Of a DNA stretch of 64,000 nt, positions 1 to 36,146 are shown piece after piece; the first letter of the stretch is position 1, and each line of letters begins with the position of its first letter. Made by a program: the position numbers and the translations under genes. A model generated the notes under the pieces. It saw only the letters and a program-made list of their open reading frames with translations. It made no database searches and had not been told where the DNA came from. The stretch is from an uncultured Pseudomonadota bacterium. Its GTDB lineage: Bacteria; Pseudomonadota; Alphaproteobacteria; Rs-D84. The stretch covers positions 8,085-72,084 of the forward strand of contig CACXVH010000005.1 of assembly GCA_902771095.1 (NCBI GenBank), given 5' to 3'.

Positions 1-31
1 AAAAATTCGTTTACATAAAATATCTTTACGG

Positions 32-247
32 GTGATGAACACAAAAACATTGTTTGTGAACAATTACCGTATGGAAATACCTAATTATGTGTATAACGAA
101 GAAAGTCAAGGATACACAGGAGATTTATCAATGAATTTATTAGGTGTTCAACGCGAAACAATAGAACCTTTGTGGTCAATATCCAGTAGTGAACAATTGC
201 CAATCACAATATTATCCATAACAACAGAAGGCAAATATTTAATATAA
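32..247 (+). CDS. hypothetical protein (phage region)
   Basis: ORF on the same strand as the phage block. No recognisable motif. It may be the tail of a longer gene starting outside the window. Confidence 0.3.
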   Translation: MMNTKTLFVNNYRMEIPNYVYNEESQGYTGDLSMNLLGVQRETIEPLWSISSSEQLPITILSITTEGKYLI

Positions 248-268
248 ATATAAAAAAGGAGATTTTTT

Positions 269-616
269 ATGGGACAACTAGTATCAGATGTTACAAGTGT
301 ATTAGATTATAATAATTCTAAGAAAACAGCAAAAAATGAACGACAAAAAATATTAGAACAAATTGCTTCTAATGAAAACACAAAAACAAATTTAATAAAA
401 AAAGTATTGGCTGAACAACGCGCAAAATATGGAGCCACAGGTAATTCTGGCACCAGTTTATCCGAAGATGCTGTATTAAAAAGATTGCGTAGTGAAACTG
501 CTGAGCCATACGAAGAAAAAAAGAAAACAAATCTTGAACAATTGAAAAAGATAAAAGTTAAAAAACCAAATCTTTTAAAGGCCTGGTTGTCCAAGGTAGA
601 TAAAATAGCAGGATAG
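269..616 (+). CDS. hypothetical phage protein, Lys/Glu-rich
   Basis: ATG is preceded by AAAGGAG. The ORF packs tightly with its neighbours. The antisense ORF 307-627 is a shadow. Confidence 0.4.
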   Translation: MGQLVSDVTSVLDYNNSKKTAKNERQKILEQIASNENTKTNLIKKVLAEQRAKYGATGNSGTSLSEDAVLKRLRSETAEPYEEKKKTNLEQLKKIKVKKPNLLKAWLSKVDKIAG

Positions 617-625
617 GGGGATTTC

Positions 626-1174
626 ATGTATAAAATATCTTATACTGGCGATGGGGCAACCACAGAATATGTTTTTGCTTTCCCTTTTTTTCAAAATGCA
701 GATGTCAAAGTTTGTATAAATAATGAATTACTGGATGATACACAATACGATATAAACCCAAACAATGATTTTACAGGCGGAACAGTGGAATTTGGTACGG
801 CACCACAATCTGGAGCAAATATAGATATTTTCAGACATATTTCTTTGGACAGAGTGATTGATTATCAGCCGACATTAAAAATAGACCCTGAAGATTTGAA
901 TTCTGATTTTAATTTTTTGTTGGCCGCGATAAAAGATTTAAATGCTGTGGATGTTGATACATCGCAATGGGCAAATATTCATGAAACAGTATTGAATCAA
1001 ATAAATTATGTTTTACAAACAATAGAAGATAAATTGTCTGGCGGCGCAGTATTAGGGCTGTATAATAATTTGCTATCCGTTTTAAATGGTGCATTACCAC
1101 AATTGATAAACGATTACGGTTCTGTTACAGAAGAAGCACCAAATGAAAATAATGACGATTACGGCAGCATATAG
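626..1174 (+). CDS. phage tail-fibre N-terminal-domain-like protein
   Basis: The N-terminus MYKISYTGDGATTEYVFAFPFF...VKVCINNELL...IDIFRHISLDRVIDYQP...EDLNSDFNFLL follows the pattern I recall for T7 gp17-type tail-fibre adaptor domains. This is similarity from memory only. Confidence 0.4.
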   Translation: MYKISYTGDGATTEYVFAFPFFQNADVKVCINNELLDDTQYDINPNNDFTGGTVEFGTAPQSGANIDIFRHISLDRVIDYQPTLKIDPEDLNSDFNFLLAAIKDLNAVDVDTSQWANIHETVLNQINYVLQTIEDKLSGGAVLGLYNNLLSVLNGALPQLINDYGSVTEEAPNENNDDYGSI

Positions 1175-1751
1175 TTTTTTAGAAGAATGGAATAAAATAC
1201 TGGGTTTCCCAACACCAACACACCATTATAAAATAATAAATTTTTTGGTGGATGTATTGAATGATGAACCGCATCGCGGTTTGTTAAATGCATTCAGACA
1301 CTCTGGAAAATCTACGGTTGTCGGTGTTTTTGCAGCATGTGTTTTGTATCATAACCCTAATATTAGGATATTAATATTGTCCGCAGAATCTGGTTTGGCA
1401 TCACGGATGGTATCTCATATAAAAAACATTTTGGAAAATCATCCTTGGTGTTCTGATATATTACCAGATGTAAAGAAAGAGTGGGGCAGTCATAAAATCA
1501 CAATAAAACGACCAGTCGGTATTCGTGAACCTTCTGTAATATGCCAAGGTATTACTGGCAACATAACTGGAATGCGTTCGGACTTGATAATTTGTGACGA
1601 TGTTGAAGTGCCTAATACTTGCGATACATACCAAAAACGAATCAAATTACGTGAAAGATTACGAGAATTGGATTTTATAGTGTCCCCAAAAGGCGCTATG
1701 ATTTACATAGGAACCCCGCATACAAAAGACACGATATATAAAACGGAATAG
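1143..1751 (+). CDS. terminase large subunit, ATPase half (ends at TAG 1749-1751)
   Basis: Walker A-like FRHSGKSTVVG, Walker B LIICDDVE and coupling motif YIGTPHTKDTIY. The ORF stops just before the point where the homologous sequence (...RGY..I.P.L) resumes at 5050+. Confidence 0.75.
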   Translation: MKIMTITAAYSFLEEWNKILGFPTPTHHYKIINFLVDVLNDEPHRGLLNAFRHSGKSTVVGVFAACVLYHNPNIRILILSAESGLASRMVSHIKNILENHPWCSDILPDVKKEWGSHKITIKRPVGIREPSVICQGITGNITGMRSDLIICDDVEVPNTCDTYQKRIKLRERLRELDFIVSPKGAMIYIGTPHTKDTIYKTE

Positions 1752-2396
1752 TTATGCAGATTGAGAAGACATAAAAGTTCGCAATCTTTTTAACATCTCT
1801 TTCCCAGAATCTCCAAACATTGGTAAAAATGTTTCATATTCTGGCATATCGGCTTGGATTTGTGCGCGATTGCGTTCTGTCAAAGTTTCTGATAATAACT
1901 CGCGCGCAGAATTCCATATCCTGTACGCTTTGTCAGTTTGAATAACAATGTCCCATTTTGCCAGCATATCTGGTTTCGATACAATTGCCGCTTTGATGTC
2001 TTGGGTCCAATCATTACCAAATTTGCGGATTATAGGCATGCTTTTAAGAGTGTTCAAACTTTCCATTGTCGGTTTGAAATTATCCAAAGCATTTTTAAGT
2101 TCATTCAATTCTGTATCGGTCAAAGAAAAACTTATTTCAATCCCTGACATCAAACCACCATATGGTAACAAATCTTTATCAATGGTGTTCATAGGGGTTT
2201 TCTTGTTCCTTAGATTATTTATATGTGCGACAAGTTTTTTCCCAGTGGGCATATTTTCCAATTCAGATATAACCTGGGCATCATTAGATTCTGCAAGAAA
2301 AACTTTGTTAACAGCAGACCAACCACCTTCAATAACATGTTCTTGACGATAAAGGTTTAACAATCTTTGTGCGATAATGTGTGCTTGTTGTGGCAT
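1752..2396 (-). CDS. hypothetical protein (first gene of the antisense cassette inside the terminase)
   Basis: 214-aa ORF with an ATG start. Its stop codon (1752-1754) directly abuts the TAG of the terminase ATPase half. No recognisable motif. Confidence 0.5.
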   Translation of the reverse strand: MPQQAHIIAQRLLNLYRQEHVIEGGWSAVNKVFLAESNDAQVISELENMPTGKKLVAHINNLRNKKTPMNTIDKDLLPYGGLMSGIEISFSLTDTELNELKNALDNFKPTMESLNTLKSMPIIRKFGNDWTQDIKAAIVSKPDMLAKWDIVIQTDKAYRIWNSARELLSETLTERNRAQIQADMPEYETFLPMFGDSGKEMLKRLRTFMSSQSA

Positions 2397-2429
2397 ATTT
2401 ATATCCCTCCTGTTAACCCCATGTTAAAT

Positions 2430-3437
2430 TTACCGCATAACAATCATAACAATCTTATGCATTGTCTTGGCATTTATCTTTTCTTCTGGATTAGATATAT
2501 GTCCGTATGTTTTACCATGTGCGTCTTGGCGAACAATAGCGATATTTGCATCAACAATTTCATCGGATTTTAATTTTGAAAAATCTGCATTTATACATAC
2601 CGCCAAATCACCAACCTTTGGTGTTATATTAGCATCTGCAAAAACATATGCGGTCTCAGGTATAAAACCGCCGACCCGTTTAGAATTTGGAATAACAGCA
2701 TATATGCCACTGCGTCCTTCCAAAGTTGACGGTGCAACAATCATTGTTTCATCAGATTTTTTCAGTTTTATAGATTTACCGTCTGGTGTTCCGAATACAG
2801 GAACCAATTTTTTACGCGCATTATCATACAATTGTGCGCCATACAAGCCGCCACTTATGTTAAGTCCGGAACTTGGGTTGCGGGGTTCTATAACGGATTT
2901 AACACGTTCGGTCACTTTGTTAATCTGTTTGGTAAGTTCGCCGCTGTTATAAAGTTTCGCGATTTCATCAAATAATTGTGATGCTGTATATCCAAAAGCA
3001 TTCGCCAAAACATCAATTTCATTTTCATAAACTTCGCGTTGACCAACTTCGATTTTATGATACACAGAAAGAGTCATATTGGCGGCATGCGCTGCATCAG
3101 CAATAGTTTTTTCTGAACGTTGACGGATTTTGCGAAGACCAGAACCAAAAACTTTTAATCCGCTGCCCGCATTGTCAGTTAAGCGCCGTTTGATTTCTTT
3201 TTGCCAATTTTGAGCAACTGCATCAGATTCATGAATGAATATATCAGATAATTTACAGCCCAAAATAGTGCAGACATTTAATAATTGTTTTTGGTTTAAT
3301 CTGCGAACACCTTTTTCAATTTTTGAAACAGCGGACAAAGACAAGTTAGCACGTCTAGCCAAATCTGTCATTTTCATACCTTTGGCAGCACGAATGTTGC
3401 GGATGTTGTTTGGAAAAATTATTTCTTCTTGTGCCAT
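2430..3437 (-). CDS. CI/XRE-type repressor with two HTH domains and a LexA/S24-like C-terminal fold
   Basis: There are two HTH_XRE-like segments: IRNIRAAKGMKMTDLARRANLSLSAVSKIEKG and LRKIRQRSEKTIADAAHAANMTLSVYHKIEVG. The C-terminal beta-rich part (VPVFG...VGDLAV...) resembles phage CI, but no clear Ser/Lys dyad is visible. Confidence 0.65.
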   Translation of the reverse strand: MAQEEIIFPNNIRNIRAAKGMKMTDLARRANLSLSAVSKIEKGVRRLNQKQLLNVCTILGCKLSDIFIHESDAVAQNWQKEIKRRLTDNAGSGLKVFGSGLRKIRQRSEKTIADAAHAANMTLSVYHKIEVGQREVYENEIDVLANAFGYTASQLFDEIAKLYNSGELTKQINKVTERVKSVIEPRNPSSGLNISGGLYGAQLYDNARKKLVPVFGTPDGKSIKLKKSDETMIVAPSTLEGRSGIYAVIPNSKRVGGFIPETAYVFADANITPKVGDLAVCINADFSKLKSDEIVDANIAIVRQDAHGKTYGHISNPEEKINAKTMHKIVMIVMR

Positions 3438-3449
3438 GTGCGAACTCCT

Positions 3450-3478
3450 TGTATATATGTTGACAAAATGATAGTCAA
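3450..3478 (-). promoter_or_regulatory. putative sigma70 promoter and operator of the repressor gene
   Basis: On the minus strand: TTGACT (3478-3473), 17 nt, TATACA (3455-3450), then AGGAG and the ATG. The inverted repeat TTGAC-N9-GTCAA (3460-3478) overlaps the spacer. Confidence 0.4.
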
Positions 3479-3503
3479 TTTTTATGAAGTTAGCAAGAAA
3501 AAA

Positions 3504-5051
3504 TTAAATAATATCATCTGGGATATCATTTATATCAATGCTGGACTGACTTTTGGTGTTTGCTGTTTGTGCATATTGTTGGTCAAAATCTGCATCTGGT
3601 GTTGGTTGCCCATTAAATTGCAAGTTGTCAAACAATGAATATTCACCGTTGAAACTAAGATGCACAGTTTCTGGTTTTCCATGACGATTCTTGGCCACGA
3701 TAACATCGGCCTTGTTTCGGGCACGATTCAAGCGATTTTGCCAATGTTGCAGAACATTTTCAGATGCATTGCCAGATAATCTTTGTTCTGGTGAATGACC
3801 ATCAAGATAATATTCTTCACGATATGTGAACATAACAATATCAGCATCTTGCTCAATAGACCCAGATTCACGCAAATCAGATAAAATTGGTCGCTTATCA
3901 TCACGGTCTTCAACCTTACGCGATAATTGAGATAACGCAATCACCGGAACATCCAATTCTTTGGCAAGTATTTTCAAACCACGGGTGATTTCAGATAACT
4001 CTTGAACACGATTATCGTTGCGTTTACCACCAGGAACAGTCATCAACTGTAAATAATCAATAACAATTAATGCCAGACCGCCAAACTGTCGTGCAATACG
4101 GCGGGCGCGTGTTTTTATTGCAGGAACAGACATCTCTGATGTATCATCAATAACAATCGGAACCTTGGCCAAAGCATCTGCATACTGAGACATTTTCATA
4201 AAATCTTCGTCTGTCAGGTTGCTACCTTCGCGCATGCGTGATGATGGTATCTTTGATTGAGAAGACAATATTCTTGCGGCTAGTTGAGGATAGGACATTT
4301 CCAAACTGAAAAACACAACTGCGCCTTTGTATTGTTGATTTGCGCGCCCATTAAGAATTGCGTTTGCTGCATTAAAAGCAATATTTAATGCCAAAGTAGT
4401 TTTTCCCATTGCTGGGCGTCCAGCGATAATGATTAAATCAGAATGGTGAAGACCGCTTATAGATTTATCCAAATCATCCAAACCTGTGGTCAAACCGGAC
4501 AATTTACCGTCCGCTTTATAGGCGATTTCTGCTTCTTGCAGCGCACTTTTTAATGCATCGCCTAATGTAACAATACTGCGTGTTGATTGACCTGTTGATG
4601 CCAGATTAAACAACTTTTGTTCTGCGGTTTCTATTTGGGTATTAACACTTTTATCCAAATCTTCGGTATAAGCATCGTCAACGATTTCTTGCCCCAAGTG
4701 TATTAAATCACGACGGCGTGCATTATCAAAAACTATGCGACCATAATGTTCAACATTAACAACTGTTGAACCCGCAGAAACCAATTTAGACAAATATTCT
4801 GTTCCACCAACAGATTCAAGAGTCCCTTGCTGTTCTAAATAAGTTTTCGCAGTAATGATATCAAAAGGTATCCCAAGCGCAAACTGACGCAGTGCCAATT
4901 TATAAATTTCTTGATGTGCCGGATGAAAAAAATGTTCTGGCAATAAAAATTCAGATACAGATTCCAGTGCGCGATTGTTCATCAATACCGCCGCCAGAAC
5001 TGCCTGTTCGGCTTCTAGATTAACTGGTAAAGTTTTCGGGGTAAAGTCCAT
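3504..5051 (-). CDS. dnaB: replicative DNA helicase DnaB
   Basis: N-terminus LPVNLEAEQAVLAAVLMNN, Walker A GRPAMGKTTLALN, then IVIDYLQLM, SQLSR and RESGSIEQDADIV. The start is taken at MDFTPK (ATG 5051). The 49 upstream in-frame codons look noncoding. Confidence 0.9.
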   Translation of the reverse strand: MDFTPKTLPVNLEAEQAVLAAVLMNNRALESVSEFLLPEHFFHPAHQEIYKLALRQFALGIPFDIITAKTYLEQQGTLESVGGTEYLSKLVSAGSTVVNVEHYGRIVFDNARRRDLIHLGQEIVDDAYTEDLDKSVNTQIETAEQKLFNLASTGQSTRSIVTLGDALKSALQEAEIAYKADGKLSGLTTGLDDLDKSISGLHHSDLIIIAGRPAMGKTTLALNIAFNAANAILNGRANQQYKGAVVFFSLEMSYPQLAARILSSQSKIPSSRMREGSNLTDEDFMKMSQYADALAKVPIVIDDTSEMSVPAIKTRARRIARQFGGLALIVIDYLQLMTVPGGKRNDNRVQELSEITRGLKILAKELDVPVIALSQLSRKVEDRDDKRPILSDLRESGSIEQDADIVMFTYREEYYLDGHSPEQRLSGNASENVLQHWQNRLNRARNKADVIVAKNRHGKPETVHLSFNGEYSLFDNLQFNGQPTPDADFDQQYAQTANTKSQSSIDINDIPDDII

Positions 5052-5898
5052 GTCTATTAGATTAAACGAAAATTTTGATAATTCAACCCCTTTTTTACGG
5101 GGATATAAAAAAATTAGAATACCGATATTGGATGATGCTGGAAATCCGGCTTGGCCAGAGATGTTTCCATTGGAAAAAATACACGAATTGGAAAACATTG
5201 TTGGACCACGCCACTTTTCTGCGCAAATGATGTTGGAATATGTCCCCGAAGAGCAGGTTTATCTAGACCCTGGGGCAATCAATTTTTATTGTGATGAATT
5301 TAATAATCATTTTGCACGAATTGGTTCCAATGAAATATCTGGGGTATCTTTTTATTGGGACCCGTCTTCTGGTCGTTCTACATCAGACGGCAGTGTGTGT
5401 GTATTAATTTATCGTGATGATAGAAATAGTACTGTGTTTATTCACGACATTTTATATATAACAGTCGCAGATGATGATTTATATCCGTTGGCAAGTCAGT
5501 GTGAAAAAGTCCTGCAATTTATGCAAGAACATAATTTGATAAGAATAGGGATAGAAATAAATGGTATTGGTAATGCGTTGCCAGAAATTATTCGAAATAC
5601 TGCAACAAAAAAGCAAATGCCAATAAACATTGTGCAAATTGCCAATCATACAAAAAAAGAAACAAGAATTTTAAATGCAATTGAACCAATTTTGACCACT
5701 GGTCGTCTTTACATGCATGAAAAGATAAAACAAACAATGTTGTTATCAGAAATGCTGGCTTGGACACCCATGGGTTCAAATGAACATGATGATGGTTTGG
5801 ATGCTGTTGCTGGCGCATTAACTATGAACCCACATCCAGTAAGAGCCATCAATCAACATAATCAAATTATTCATGCAAACACATATTTCAAAATATGA
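5050..5898 (+). CDS. terminase large subunit, nuclease half (own ATG at 5050)
   Basis: ...LRGYKKIRIPILDDAGNPAWPEMF...FSAQMMLEYVP...SFYWDPSSG...DGSVCVLIY...HDDGLDAVAGAL is a typical RNaseH-like terminase nuclease domain. It continues the homology broken at 1751. Confidence 0.7.
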   Translation: MSIRLNENFDNSTPFLRGYKKIRIPILDDAGNPAWPEMFPLEKIHELENIVGPRHFSAQMMLEYVPEEQVYLDPGAINFYCDEFNNHFARIGSNEISGVSFYWDPSSGRSTSDGSVCVLIYRDDRNSTVFIHDILYITVADDDLYPLASQCEKVLQFMQEHNLIRIGIEINGIGNALPEIIRNTATKKQMPINIVQIANHTKKETRILNAIEPILTTGRLYMHEKIKQTMLLSEMLAWTPMGSNEHDDGLDAVAGALTMNPHPVRAINQHNQIIHANTYFKI

Positions 5899-5917
5899 AT
5901 AACAAAAAGGAAAAACG

Positions 5918-7141
5918 ATGCAAAAAAATCTTATACAATTATATAAACGCGCATTGGACGAAAGAGAAGTTTGGTTGTCCAGATGGAAAAATGCTATGCG
6001 CTATACCATACCCACAGATGATACAGAAGTCGCAACATTGTTTGATGCAACTGCTGCTGATGCAGTAGATAATTTGGCGGCATCAATGTATTCTTTGCTG
6101 ACACCGCCAGAATCACTTTGGATAAACTTGGTGCGTGAAAGCGATTTGTCGCCAGACGCAGAAACCGCAACAAATGTATTGCGCGCACATCTTAATGATT
6201 CAAACTTTTACACGACTATACATCAATGCTATATAGATTTAGTCGTTCTTGGAACAGCATGTTTGTTTATGGCGGAAAATCCATTGGGGGCAGATTCTGC
6301 TTTTTCCTTTACGGCAATTCCAATGAAAGATTTAGCAATATTGCCAAATGCGGTGTTTCATACTACATCGCTACCTGCCTGTGAATTGATGGAAAAATAC
6401 CCAACAGTGACATTTCCAAACAATATAAAAGAAACAGTAAAAAATAATCCGCAAACACCGATAAAATTAGTTCAATCTTTGGTTGGCAAAGATTTTACGG
6501 CCTGGATAGATGTTGGTGGCGATTTCGAAAATAATGTTGTTGCACGCGGAACATTTGAAACAAATCCATACATAATTTTCCGTTGGTCACTTGTCAGTGG
6601 GGAATTATATGGTCGCGGTCCAGTATTGCGTGCTTTGCCTGATATCAAGACAGCAAACAAAGTTGTTGAATTGGTGTTAAAAAACGCAACAATCGCGGTA
6701 AGTGGTATCTGGCAAGCCGATGATGATGGGGTTATCAATCTTTCTAATATAAATTTAACACCTGGGGCAATTATACCAAAAGCAGTGGGCAGTTCTGGGT
6801 TAACACCTTTATCCAGTGGTGCGGACTTTGATGTTTCACAAATCGTTTTGCGTGATTTGCGTGATAGAATCAGACATACTCTTTTGGCAGATAGGTTAGG
6901 GTTGTTATCTGATAAAGAAATGACTGCCACAGAAATATTGGCGCGTAACGCAGATATGGTAAGAATTCTGGGGGCTACATATGGTCGTTTGCTGCATGAA
7001 TTTATAAGACCTTTGTGTGAACGCGGTTTGCAAATTTTATCGCGTCGCGGATTGATAGATAAAATTTCTTTGCATAGTGATGCTGAATTAAAATACATTG
7101 CGCCAATTGCACAAATGGCGCGTGAAGAAATGTCCATTTAA
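5918..7141 (+). CDS. phage portal (head-tail connector) protein
   Basis: It lies immediately downstream of the terminase and is 407 aa. The motif LYGRGPVLRALPDIKTANKV and the overall layout are recalled as podovirus portal-like. RBS AAAGGAAAAA precedes the start. Confidence 0.55.
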   Translation: MQKNLIQLYKRALDEREVWLSRWKNAMRYTIPTDDTEVATLFDATAADAVDNLAASMYSLLTPPESLWINLVRESDLSPDAETATNVLRAHLNDSNFYTTIHQCYIDLVVLGTACLFMAENPLGADSAFSFTAIPMKDLAILPNAVFHTTSLPACELMEKYPTVTFPNNIKETVKNNPQTPIKLVQSLVGKDFTAWIDVGGDFENNVVARGTFETNPYIIFRWSLVSGELYGRGPVLRALPDIKTANKVVELVLKNATIAVSGIWQADDDGVINLSNINLTPGAIIPKAVGSSGLTPLSSGADFDVSQIVLRDLRDRIRHTLLADRLGLLSDKEMTATEILARNADMVRILGATYGRLLHEFIRPLCERGLQILSRRGLIDKISLHSDAELKYIAPIAQMAREEMSI

Positions 7142-7152
7142 AAGGAATCATA

Positions 7153-7353
7153 ATGAACGAAATTGAAAAACAATATGTACGAACATTTTCCAGTGCGTCT
7201 GGCAAACAAGTTTTGACCCATCTGTGTTCTTTAACCATAGAACGTATTTTGGGGCAAAATGTGACAGATGAAGAATTGCGTTGGTGGGCAGCACAAAATG
7301 CACTGGTTCATCAGATAGAAAACTTAATCAAAAGAGGTAATAATCCAACATAA
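7153..7353 (+). CDS. small phage protein (possibly Bbp19-like)
   Basis: 66 aa, 12 nt after the portal. FSSASGKQVLTHLCSLT...WWAAQNALVHQIENLI is reminiscent of the Bbp19 family. This is weak and from memory. Confidence 0.3.
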   Translation: MNEIEKQYVRTFSSASGKQVLTHLCSLTIERILGQNVTDEELRWWAAQNALVHQIENLIKRGNNPT

Positions 7354-7384
7354 CATTTTATTTATGGTAAATTATTAAAACAAA

Positions 7385-7645
7385 ATGGCGAAACAGCAAA
7401 ATTTTTTTAACTTTCTAGATATATTGCGAGACAGTTGGTTTTTAATTGCTTTTGTCGCGGGTTTAATTTATTGGGTTGCGCGCCAAGATTCTTATGTTGC
7501 AGAAGTTGAAAGACAAGACCAAAGAATAACAGCATTGGAAAACCGAACAACAATATTGGAATCTGGTATCGGACAATTACAATTAAAAATAGATGGAATC
7601 AAAGAAGATGTCACATTGATTAAAAGTGCGGTTATAAAAAACTAG
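7385..7645 (+). CDS. single-pass membrane protein with coiled coil (phage- or host-derived)
   Basis: TM segment WFLIAFVAGLIYWV is followed by heptad-like ITALENRTTILESGIGQLQLKIDGIKEDV. It overlaps the yraN stop by 4 nt in convergent orientation. Confidence 0.4.
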   Translation: MAKQQNFFNFLDILRDSWFLIAFVAGLIYWVARQDSYVAEVERQDQRITALENRTTILESGIGQLQLKIDGIKEDVTLIKSAVIKN

Positions 7646-7995
7646 ATTGCATTTTTTGCCCAATATATTTTATGACCGCACACTATTATAACATCAAAAC
7701 GCGCATCACCGTTCCAACGATTTTGTATTAAATATGTTTCTGCGGCACGGCGCAGGCGCGCAGACTGTTGCGGTGTTATAGCATCCCAACCGGCATCAAC
7801 AGTTTTGCGCGCCTTGACTTCTATAAAAACAATAGTATTTTTATGTTTGGCGATAATATCTATTTCTGCACGGTTAGTGTTTTTACCGGTTACATATCTG
7901 CTTTTTAATATGCGATACCCGTGAAAACGCAAATACATACGCGCCAGAAATTCAGAATATAAACCAACTTGATAAGATGTTTTCTTAGAACGCAT
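7642..7995 (-). CDS. yraN: YraN-family (UPF0102) endonuclease-like protein
   Basis: GLYSEFLARMYLRFHGYRILKSRY...EIDIIAKHKNTIVFIEVKARK matches the YraN/UPF0102 pattern. Confidence 0.75.
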   Translation of the reverse strand: MRSKKTSYQVGLYSEFLARMYLRFHGYRILKSRYVTGKNTNRAEIDIIAKHKNTIVFIEVKARKTVDAGWDAITPQQSARLRRAAETYLIQNRWNGDARFDVIIVCGHKIYWAKNAI

Positions 7996-8806
7996 AAGGT
8001 TTTGCCTGGAAATTTTCGCGCGCCTGTTGAATGTTTAACGAAGAATCTGTTGTATTTAATCCATTATCAATCAGAACCAACTGACCATAATATGCCTGCA
8101 TCATTGGGTCATAGGCGTTTTCAGACGAAAGCCATTTATCTTCGCCAGAATTTGGAACACCATATTTATCAATCACACCCTGCCAAAAGGTCAGAATCTT
8201 TTTTTCGCGAATGTTTTCAAATTTTTCACTATCGCCTTCTGTGTTATTTACATCATTAGAATATACAACTTTCCAAACCAGGTTATCTGTGGCATTACTT
8301 GTAAAATAAACATCAATTGTTTCGTCGGTAAAACCGCGTTCCAAATGTATTTCAGACACGTATAACAACCCGCGATTTTTTGCCAAAGAATATATACACT
8401 TTTCCAATTTTTCTGGGATGAAAATATTGTTTTGGCGACATTCGTAATCAAGATTATATTTCCATTCTTTGTTTATAGTATAAACAACACTGTTCTTTGC
8501 GCGTGGTGCATAAAGCCCAGAACGATTAAAAAACAAATTATATACTTCGTCATAATCCATTCCCAACATTACGCCCGCAATATCAAAATGCTTAACATCA
8601 ACAGGTGTTCTGCCATAATCTAAAGACACACTTTCTGTATTAACATCTATATCGCCACTATCAACAGTAGCAAATTCGTCAAAAGATAAATCATCTGTCG
8701 TATCATCATATTCATATTCGTCATAAAAATCATCGTCTGCAAACAAAGCGGGCGAATATACCGCCATTGAACAAATTGATATTAAAAACAAAATTTTCTT
8801 TATCAT
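7985..8806 (-). CDS. secreted hypothetical protein with acidic N-terminal region
   Basis: Signal peptide MIKKILFLISICSMAVYSPALFA is followed by the D/E/Y-rich DDDFYDEYEYDDTTDD. It overlaps both neighbours, consistent with an operon. Confidence 0.5.
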   Translation of the reverse strand: MIKKILFLISICSMAVYSPALFADDDFYDEYEYDDTTDDLSFDEFATVDSGDIDVNTESVSLDYGRTPVDVKHFDIAGVMLGMDYDEVYNLFFNRSGLYAPRAKNSVVYTINKEWKYNLDYECRQNNIFIPEKLEKCIYSLAKNRGLLYVSEIHLERGFTDETIDVYFTSNATDNLVWKVVYSNDVNNTEGDSEKFENIREKKILTFWQGVIDKYGVPNSGEDKWLSSENAYDPMMQAYYGQLVLIDNGLNTTDSSLNIQQARENFQAKPYAF

Positions 8807-21099: not shown

Positions 21100-23012
<1,913 letters not shown>

Positions 23013-35763: not shown

Positions 35764-35794
35764 TTTTTGTTCCTTTTATTTGTTCATATTTAGT

Positions 35795-36111
35795 TATCGG
35801 GTTTCTGGTGCCAGGTACCCGATGAACCCCGCAAAAGCTAAACGAAATATATCAACAATTGCCAATATATTTCAAAGCCGTATTAGGCAGCCATTGCAAA
35901 GCGAACATTGTCGTTCGCAGCGATTCTATCGCCATTCAGTTTTTATTTAGTTTTTACGGAACCACCCGGATTCAATCGATTTGCCTTTATTTCGCCTGTC
36001 GAAACTATGTCAGCCCCATAGATAAAATTGGTGGAGCTGTGGGGTACCGCCCCCCAGTCCAAAACGATTATTCCGCAACGAATTCAGAATCATCACCATT
36101 TTTCAACGGCA
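35795..36111 (-). ncRNA. ssrA: two-piece (circularly permuted) tmRNA gene: acceptor piece about 36111-36029, 11-nt spacer, coding piece 36017 to about 35795
   Basis: The minus strand reads ...GGAC-TGGGG-GGCGGTA-CCCCA-CAGCTCCACCA, then attttatctat, then GGGGCTGACATAGTTTCGACAGGCG... The G3:U70 pair is present. The tag ORF at 35921-35883 is GCT GCG AAC GAC AAT GTT CGC TTT GCA ATG GCT GCC TAA, giving AANDNVRFAMAA. The outer ends are approximate. Confidence 0.85.
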
Positions 36112-36117
36112 ATGTAT

Positions 36118-36146
36118 ATTATAAATATTCTTACTGGAAATTGCAA
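36118..36146 (-). promoter_or_regulatory. sigma70-type promoter of ssrA
   Basis: On the minus strand: TTGCAA (36146-36141), 17 nt, TATAAT (36123-36118). Confidence 0.55.

Follow-up and report, generated by a model that had tools for sequence, protein, structure and literature searches.

Organization of the locus

The DNA considered here, referred to as the window, is a 64,000-nucleotide stretch of contig CACXVH010000005.1 (GenBank assembly GCA_902771095.1, positions 8,085 to 72,084 of the forward strand) from an uncultured alphaproteobacterium of the order Rs-D84. Close to its start, the large terminase of a T7-like gene cluster is encoded not as a single polypeptide but as two open reading frames (ORFs) 3.3 kb apart, the first with its own stop codon and the second with its own start codon. 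These two ORFs, TerL-N and TerL-C, are separated by three genes on the opposite strand, orf214, a gene for a double helix-turn-helix (HTH) regulator and dnaB, and TerL-C is followed by the gene for a T7-type portal (Table 1). An earlier sequence-only reading of this DNA had described an ATPase-side ORF that ends with TAG at 1751, a homologous continuation 3.3 kb further on with its own ATG at 5050, three opposite-strand genes filling 1752-5049 and essentially no spare DNA at either junction. The ORF map and the sequence agree with this description in full, and the tight packing is typical of related loci.

At the left junction, the TAG of TerL-N and the stop codon of orf214 abut, 0 nt apart. 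At the right junction, the ATG of dnaB and the ATG of TerL-C interlock in the tetranucleotide CATG at 5049-5052, which is present at the anchored position in 66 of 70 related loci. In 37 of 81 loci, the convergent stop codons of TerL-N and orf214 share 4 nt (TTAA or CTAG), and a gap of 0-9 nt separates them in most of the remainder. No direct or inverted repeats were found at the two junctions, and Rfam gives 0 matches to any family, introns included, at E ≤ 1 across positions 1-8000. Searches with the Pfam, phrog, NCBIfam and PADLOC profile libraries detect no Hint, HNH, LAGLIDADG or GIY-YIG domain in the intervening genes, nor a recombinase domain in any of the three. The sequence-only reading had likewise seen no recombinase, intron, intein or homing-endonuclease signature, and these searches bear it out. 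An origin of the split in an intron, intein or homing endonuclease is rejected, since no such signature is present, the two products together make up a full-length protein and the genes in the insert are antisense. A mobile cassette that is excised is also very unlikely, there being no recombinase and no border repeats.

The split layout recurs in more than 110 independent contigs, among them the circular long-read (metaFlye) metagenome-assembled genome (MAG) OZ007020.1, and misassembly is therefore excluded. A false join near 1751 or 5050, introduced by assembly or binning, retains no probability at all, because the same junctions appear in independent assemblies from many animals and by several assemblers; a misassembly there had been named as one of the outcomes that would undo the finding. 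When JGI metagenome contigs were searched by exact pattern, neither a rejoined terL junction nor the native junction, the positive control, gave a match.

Table 1. Features of the split terminase locus and of the adjoining cluster genes in the window
Feature	Position	Strand	Remarks
Tail tubular protein B, 3' end	1-247	+	ORF 32-247 identical to C-terminus of L004 7393-9105 (570 residues; phrog_376 tail protein, 5.5e-88)
115-residue coiled-coil-like conserved protein	269-616	+	In 80/80 loci; no family match
Short T7-type tail fibre, N-terminal adaptor domain	626-1174	+	Pfam Phage_T7_tail, phrog_1640
TerL-N	1143-1751	+	202 residues; C-terminus ...IYIGTPHTKDTIYKTE / ...GTPHTKDTIYKTE, then TAG; from the ORF map
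orf214	1752-2396	-	All-helical conserved protein
Double-HTH regulator	2430-3437	-	335 residues; Pfam HTH_3, 2 stretches
HTH promoter and operator	3460-3496	-	-35 TTGCTA 3496-3491, 17-nt spacer, -10 TATCAT 3473-3468
dnaB	3504-5051	-	515 residues; host-type (alphaproteobacterial) replicative DNA helicase
CATG	5049-5052	.	Overlapping divergent start codons of dnaB (-) and TerL-C (+)
TerL-C	5050-5898	+	282 residues
T7-type portal (head-to-tail connector)	5918-7141	+	407 residues; Pfam Head-tail_con 6e-81
Bbp19-like small phage protein	7153-7353	+	Pfam PF25181; 3' of portal in unsplit relatives too
86-residue conserved protein, last cluster gene	7385-7645	+	

The two halves of the terminase

TerL-N and TerL-C together make up a single T7-type large terminase, of which they are two contiguous halves. 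Against the TerL profile phrog_38, TerL-N occupies positions 276-459 and TerL-C positions 468-707. On the NCBIfam model termin_lrg_T7 (NF033889), TerL-N covers profile positions 5-190, with a score of 223 bits where 150 is the cutoff, and TerL-C has its best stretch at 333-500. The two products together have 484 residues and align end to end with unsplit relatives of 481-505 residues, so that both ORFs belong to a single family, as had been proposed from the sequence, and no residue is missing at the junction, where the loss of a few had been allowed for. The junction is located in a poorly conserved loop of variable length, which is 3-7 residues longer in the window than in the unsplit relatives.

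T7-type large terminases, such as T7 gp19 (PDB 4BIJ) and PhiV-1 TerL (PDB 8DGC), belong to the same family and have the Walker A and B motifs and motif III followed by an RNaseH-like nuclease. TerL-N aligns to residues 27-211 of T7 gp19 and contains Walker A (RHSGKST), Walker B with the catalytic Glu (LIICDDVE) and motif III (GTPH), and it ends only 10 residues past motif III. TerL-C begins with a variable N-terminal tail (residues 1-12), continues with the last ATPase strand and the lid helices (about residues 13-95) and ends with the RNaseH-like nuclease (about residues 97-260). The nuclease is recognized by Pfam Terminase-T7_RNaseH-like (PF22530) at 127-220 (9.5e-10) and Terminase_6C (PF17289) at 102-259 (2.6e-06), and carries the acidic motifs WDP, E-NG-G and DDGLDA. 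The catalytic motifs are at least 98% conserved, the ATPase set in 83 orthologues and the nuclease set in 72.

The cut lies inside the ATPase domain, in a disordered loop immediately after motif III, and leaves the last strand and the lid on TerL-C. In the AlphaFold 2 (AF2) model of the closest unsplit relative, P0243 (predicted local distance difference test score, pLDDT, 89), whose top fold match in the PDB is 8DGC_E (E 1e-28), the strand that carries motif III ends at residue 186, and residues 187-211 have no secondary structure, with a dip in pLDDT to 76. The fission maps to about residue 199, within this unstructured stretch. Past the split, the model has a strand at 212-216, two helices at 233-252 and the nuclease fold from about residue 270. 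The solved ATPase-domain structures of P74-26 and T4 gp17 align over about 250-280 columns of the P0243 model, well beyond the split site, and in TerL-C the nuclease domain is not reached until about residue 97-102; the split is therefore inside the ATPase domain. The sequence-only reading had the gene divided into an ATPase gene and a nuclease gene; this holds as far as there are two halves with the nuclease on the second, but the break is within the ATPase domain and not at the domain boundary. The strand from TerL-C (about residues 22-27) would be expected to complete the sheet of TerL-N and thereby hold both chains together.

Splits of the same loop in other lineages

The same loop is interrupted in several other lineages. 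In two strains of an unrelated bacterium (loci L012 and L013), the TerL genes are adjacent and are divided at this loop by a stop/start overlap, ATGGGTGA. In locus L168 (8179-9925), the halves are parted at this loop by a non-coding spacer of 265 nt that contains no ORF and has no Rfam match, and locus L014 has an in-frame TAA at the same loop position. About 20 other relatives have terL as one continuous ORF. In quick neighbour-joining trees, which carry no support values, L012 and L168 fall outside the clade formed by Enterousia and locus L154, which suggests that the fissions in L012/L013 and in L168 are events separate from that in Enterousia.

In L012 and L013, the segment 9549-11480 consists of a lone 149-residue gene, TerL-N (210 residues) and TerL-C (271-284 residues), with no capsid genes nearby, and its neighbours are genes for OLD-TOPRIM, M78 peptidase and Beta_protein families. 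A PKFPE repeat of variable copy number follows the start of the C half. In L168, the capsid protein is 72% identical to that encoded beside the split terminase of the window's lineage, yet the L168 TerL groups elsewhere in the trees.

Distribution and selection

The split is an ancient one and has become fixed throughout a bacterial lineage. GTDB species genomes, when scanned, yielded 80 loci; 70 of these are long enough for the layout to be judged, and 67 of the 70 have TerL-N on the forward strand, orf214, the double-HTH gene and dnaB on the reverse strand, and TerL-C and portal on the forward strand. The same order from TerL-N to TerL-C is present in all 44 informative IMG/VR contigs. Among the TerL-N matches listed (n = 120), identity is 82-100% and every protein has 194-212 residues. 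The MAGs that encode homologues of TerL-N and DnaB bear the names Alphaproteobacteria bacterium or Candidatus Enterousia; they belong to the order Rs-D84, uncultured gut Alphaproteobacteria with genomes of about 0.75-1 Mb (PMC12306168). The gene order extends to a lineage whose DnaB is only 72% identical, and sequences with the canonical layout have diverged to 67% (TerL-N) and 72% (DnaB) amino-acid identity.

TerL-N and TerL-C are both conserved genes under strong purifying selection, and the catalytic motifs of each are intact. Between the window and locus L001, where synonymous divergence (dS) is saturated at 1.2-2.9 and exceeds 1.3 for the terminase halves, the portal and DnaB, the ratio of nonsynonymous to synonymous divergence (dN/dS) is 0.06 for TerL-N, 0.15 for TerL-C, 0.04 for the portal, 0.07 for DnaB, 0.09 for the HTH regulator and 0.12 for orf214, with a range of 0.04-0.17 across all cluster genes. 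Over 63 species loci, pairwise distances track those of DnaB (r 0.64-0.80), as vertical inheritance predicts, and the rates relative to DnaB are 0.62x for the major capsid protein (MCP), 0.77x for the portal, 0.96x for TerL-N and 1.64x for TerL-C. The least conserved parts of both halves are their termini. The sequence-only reading had favoured a terminase of two polypeptides, old and possibly functional, or else a domesticated remnant, over a fresh disruption. This fits well with the fixed layout, the low dN/dS values, the conservation of the motifs and the splitting of the same loop elsewhere.

The intervening genes

The dnaB gene encodes the host-type replicative helicase and is not phage cargo. 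Its product scores 610 bits on the NCBIfam equivalog PRK09165 (cutoff 540) and 512 on TIGR00665 (cutoff 385), while it reaches 409 bits on the phage_DnaB model, below the cutoff of 499. Both the N-terminal (PF00772) and C-terminal (PF03796) domains are present, and the earlier description of a full-length DnaB in the insert is correct. No second DnaB is encoded in the window. The orf214 protein has 1083 homologues, all of them without a name; its AF2 model (pLDDT 79) is all alpha, and Foldseek finds no fold relative at E < 0.9 in PDB or BFVD. The gene probably shares a transcript with the HTH gene.

The three intervening genes are host-type, not mobile and not a unit. In locus L154, whose DnaB is 57% identical, TerL-N is followed by dnaB and an 834-residue gene, both on the reverse strand, and then by TerL-C, with the HTH gene and orf214 absent. 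Locus L092 has a gap of 9.2 kb between the halves with extra genes, dnaB is inverted in L094, and in L089, from the termite MAG Nt197P3bin78, the locus is broken after the HTH gene and the halves are not neighbours. Because the content of the gap varies in these four loci of basal lineages, the genes do not form a unit, and the 'cassette' of dnaB and repressor that had been proposed does not stand. Since dnaB is the element common to the gaps, it is presumably the oldest occupant. The extreme compaction of the locus fits genome streamlining better than a mechanistic requirement.

Two of these variant loci have further features of their own. In L154 (4731-13855, GC 51%), the 834-residue protein is Cys-rich and secreted-looking, and a pilin-like gene and a ParA-like ATPase gene lie between TerL-C and the portal. 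In L092 (12517-19737), which comes from a termite-associated MAG, a 776-residue helicase-like protein is encoded between dnaB and TerL-C, and there is a beta-lactamase-like ORF; these labels are provisional.

The HTH regulator has two HTH domains of the XRE type and a C-terminal domain of about 150 residues. The first HTH domain is nearly invariant in 77 orthologues. The C-terminal domain has no match in Pfam, NCBIfam, PADLOC or the PDB sequences, where matches are confined to the HTH domains. The gene has a sigma-70-like promoter, and the palindrome TTGACAAAATGATAGTCAA (TTGAC-N9-GTCAA, 3460-3478) overlaps the -10 box, an arrangement that fits autorepression. The promoter/operator block TTGCyA...ATTGACTAnnATTTTGTCAA is kept in nearly all of 83 loci (77 aligned operator instances), and a position weight matrix scan finds the full palindrome at the HTH promoter in 72 loci and almost nowhere else. 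The protein had been described as a double-HTH, CI-like repressor with its own promoter and palindromic operator. The two HTH domains, promoter and operator are as described, and like lambda CI the regulator has a putative operator over its own promoter, but the C-terminal S24 (LexA-like) self-cleaving domain of CI is not detected: Pfam Peptidase_S24 gives no match at E ≤ 0.01, and the resemblance to S24 seen by eye is unconfirmed.

A non-coding block with strong conservation lies at the cluster's left edge (about 2100-2300 in locus L004), upstream of an 80-residue Cro/C1-type HTH gene (g80). Its elements are, in order, TTGACGAATCGAAATATAATACA, two TTGTCAA heptamers 12-13 nt apart, and CCTAGGAAATGGTACT, and the heptamer pair is present in 50 of 58 loci. 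The heptamer is identical to the right half-site of the operator at 3460-3478, which hints that the regulator may also act at the left edge.

The T7-like cluster

The terminase genes belong to a cluster of about 13 kb, and the window opens inside it. The order of the cluster is endolysin, small membrane protein, scaffold, major capsid, tail tubular A and B, fibre, terminase and portal. Its upstream part was read in L004, which has an endolysin-like gene, a small membrane protein, a T7 scaffold, the major capsid (phrog_3437), tubular A and B, the 115-residue protein and the fibre. Beyond the last cluster gene are host genes, yraN (7642-7995) and then bamA, and the cluster has a fixed chromosomal site beside these two genes; 67 of 70 species loci share its synteny. 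In L001-L009, the genes called in the 10 kb on each side include no integrase, DNA polymerase or RNA polymerase. With the terminase, the portal and the Bbp19-like protein, the cluster is a minimal podovirus gene set that has no genes for replication, transcription or integration.

Because the cluster is fixed, vertically inherited and kept by selection, it may be regarded as a domesticated element that produces particles, and the most economical reading is that of a candidate gene transfer agent (GTA). It has two hallmarks of such an agent, a chromosomal, vertically inherited cluster under purifying selection and the absence of replication, integration or excision genes. A third, particles that deliver random host DNA to other cells in pieces too small for the cluster itself, would be predicted.

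Several smaller features are visible in L004. Between scaffold and capsid (5203-5490) there is a Lys/Ala-rich, histone-H1-like ORF (Pfam HC2, 9e-11); the gap of 0.6-0.8 kb between these two genes is present in all loci, and the ORF is detectable only in the closest species. At 2610-3684, a gene for a biotin-protein ligase (229 residues, BPL_LplA_LipB) is preceded and overlapped by an ORF of 139 residues, which has no family match and, by eye, a winged-helix-like end, and may be a separate DNA-binding part of BirA.

Compact T7-like clusters of 10-13 kb with an unsplit TerL were found in the IMG/VR loci L155-L174 and in L010, on contigs of 34-74% GC. Their order is portal, Bbp19-like protein, scaffold, MCP, tubular A and B, fibre, unsplit TerL and endolysin, and one of them adjoins topA and argG in a bacterial genome. 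They may represent a wide, undescribed family of mini T7-like elements, related elements in other hosts.

Origin and function of the split terminase

The reading preferred here, with a probability of roughly 0.7, is an ancient fission of the terminase gene in a domesticated T7-like cluster, with the host dnaB and a regulator now between halves that most likely work as a two-chain enzyme. The gene for the large terminase would first have been cut in the disordered surface loop just past the ATPase motif III. The gap between the halves would then have been ordinary intergenic chromosome, in which the host dnaB lodged first and to which the autoregulated double-HTH regulator and orf214 came later. 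Genome reduction would have removed all spacer, leaving overlapping stops on the left and overlapping starts (CATG) on the right. TerL-N, with the P-loop core, and TerL-C, with the last ATPase strand, the lid and the nuclease, would reassemble non-covalently into a packaging motor, and TerL-C and the portal would be transcribed separately from the left arm of the cluster.

Some observations weigh against this reading. No convincing promoter for TerL-C and portal, or for dnaB, is found in the compact version of the locus, where it would lie inside coding sequence; in an ungapped conservation profile around the CATG, the dnaB side has ordinary codon periodicity and the TerL-C side has low conservation, and no promoter is resolved. 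TerL-C evolves 1.6x faster than DnaB and hence is under less constraint than TerL-N. The small terminase (TerS) and the internal core proteins are not identified in the cluster. The order of events, with fission before insertion, is deduced from the other lineages, and that dnaB is the sole, essential copy is presumed from the 64 kb window and from host genomes of less than 1 Mb. Association of the chains, particle formation and DNA packaging are all predicted from the genes.

A bolder version, which is possible but doubtful, is that of an order-wide T7-like GTA with a genuine two-chain terminase. Here the head-to-head arrangement of dnaB with terL-C and portal, in which the start codons overlap, together with the antisense orientation of dnaB to the left arm, would make replication and particle production mutually exclusive, and the double-HTH regulator would set a switch between replicating and packaging with lysis. 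The tidiness and conservation of the junctions could instead reflect a DNA rearrangement in which the 3.3 kb segment, as an intervening element of the kind seen in skin of B. subtilis or nifD of Anabaena, is excised or inverted in particle-producing cells, so that an intact terL is rebuilt and dnaB is removed or silenced. The loss of dnaB would be tolerable there, since particle production with lysis is terminal, and orf214 is a gene without an assigned function. Such a switch is nevertheless very unlikely, because none of the three genes has a recombinase domain, orf214 being all-helical with no fold match, and the junctions lack direct or inverted repeats. The halves have stop or start codons of their own and are least conserved at their termini; moreover, the gap varies in size, content and orientation (L092, L094 and L154), the halves are not adjacent in L089, and other lineages are split with no insert at all.

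The halves might also have been recruited as a stand-alone ATPase and a stand-alone nuclease, for example in repair or defence, the terminase as such being dead. Their location in different transcription units and their unequal rates (0.96x and 1.64x that of dnaB) would suit this idea, as would the lone split TerL pair of L012/L013, with its defence-like neighbours and no capsid genes nearby. It seems unlikely, however, since in the Enterousia lineage the halves always lie within a complete head, tail and lysis set, and this structural set is under equal or stronger selection (MCP 0.62x, portal 0.77x, with a dN/dS of 0.04 for the portal). TerL-N alone would lack the last ATPase strand and the lid, which makes a self-sufficient ATPase improbable, and neither half matches any PADLOC defence model. 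Least probable of the biological alternatives, and only barely to be entertained, is a decaying prophage remnant in which a disrupted terminase is passively retained because the essential dnaB and the host neighbours make deletion costly. A dnaB within the cluster would indeed shield its flanks from large deletions, and TerS and the core proteins have not been recognized. But under passive retention one would expect frameshifts, patchy loss and a dN/dS near 1, whereas the values are 0.04-0.17 with saturated dS, the ORFs are intact in more than 110 contigs and the catalytic residues are invariant; in host genomes of less than 1 Mb, useless DNA is lost fast (PMC12306168).

Comparison with known systems

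Large terminases are treated as single-chain, two-domain motors. Relative to T7 gp19, the terminase of the window is divided over two genes that lie 3.3 kb from each other and enclose host genes on the opposite strand, has 484 residues in total instead of 586, and is chromosomal and vertically inherited rather than part of a phage genome. The nrdA gene of Aeromonas phage Aeh1 is split by mobE, and its two polypeptides reportedly reassemble into an active enzyme. It is likewise an essential phage gene in fragments, but the terminase locus has no endonuclease gene. Developmentally excised elements (skin in sigK, the nifD element and the 'phage regulatory switches') contain several kb of unrelated genes and have clean borders. 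The present locus differs from skin and the nifD element in that it has neither a recombinase nor border repeats, its halves come with a stop or start of their own, the gap is variable, and the halves are unlinked in one lineage. Group I introns, inteins or homing endonucleases can also split terL, as in the Jug jumbo phages, where the fragments are co-transcribed and spliced (PMC12880540). In the window, by contrast, the halves flank opposite-strand genes, so RNA splicing cannot rejoin them. In the literature searched, the only splits of terL found are spliced introns or inteins.

The GTAs of Alphaproteobacteria, RcGTA and BaGTA of Bartonella, are similarly phage-derived clusters of head, tail and packaging genes that are chromosomal, co-diverge with the host, are under purifying selection and have no replication or integration module (their biology is taken here from general knowledge and PMC12946183). 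The Enterousia cluster differs from them in its T7-like podovirus origin, as opposed to an HK97-like siphovirus origin, in its split terminase, in having no recognized TerS and in being known from its genes alone. FpGTA of Faecalibacterium prausnitzii is a gut GTA-like element that is thought to be podovirus-like and has been called the first such element (PMC12946183). It belongs to another phylum and occupies two loci, a T7-type or split TerL is not reported for it (PMC12946183), and its likeness to the present cluster is by description only. The literature searched yielded no paper that describes T7-derived GTAs, fission of a T7-like terminase, or phage-like elements in Rs-D84 or Enterousia.

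A long-kept two-chain terminase cut within the ATPase domain would be a natural experiment on communication between the ATPase core, the lid and the nuclease, and the recurrently split loop would be a ready-made split site for engineering. The cluster itself appears to be an undescribed, domesticated T7-like particle cluster present throughout an order of uncultured gut bacteria with genomes of less than 1 Mb, and is more tightly conserved than dnaB. If it is a true GTA, it would be the first derived from a T7-like phage, as far as the searched literature shows, and a major path by which these reduced genomes exchange genes. The lodging of a replicative helicase gene in the element is a striking physical interlock of host and ex-viral genes.

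Other features of the window

The remainder of the window is bacterial chromosome, with a two-piece tmRNA, tRNAs, BamA, frr, PBP1 and RNase E. Its GC skew, examined as a pointer to a nearby origin, tracks gene orientation. LigA, the NAD-dependent DNA ligase, is present as two adjacent same-strand ORFs (21114-21884 and 21897-23012), which cover positions 2-207 and 294-662 of the NF005932 profile, respectively; a further gene fission, a frameshift or a pseudogene in this reduced genome may explain the arrangement. The two-piece (permuted) tmRNA at 35792-36121 encodes the tag peptide AANDNVRFAMAA, as expected for Alphaproteobacteria.

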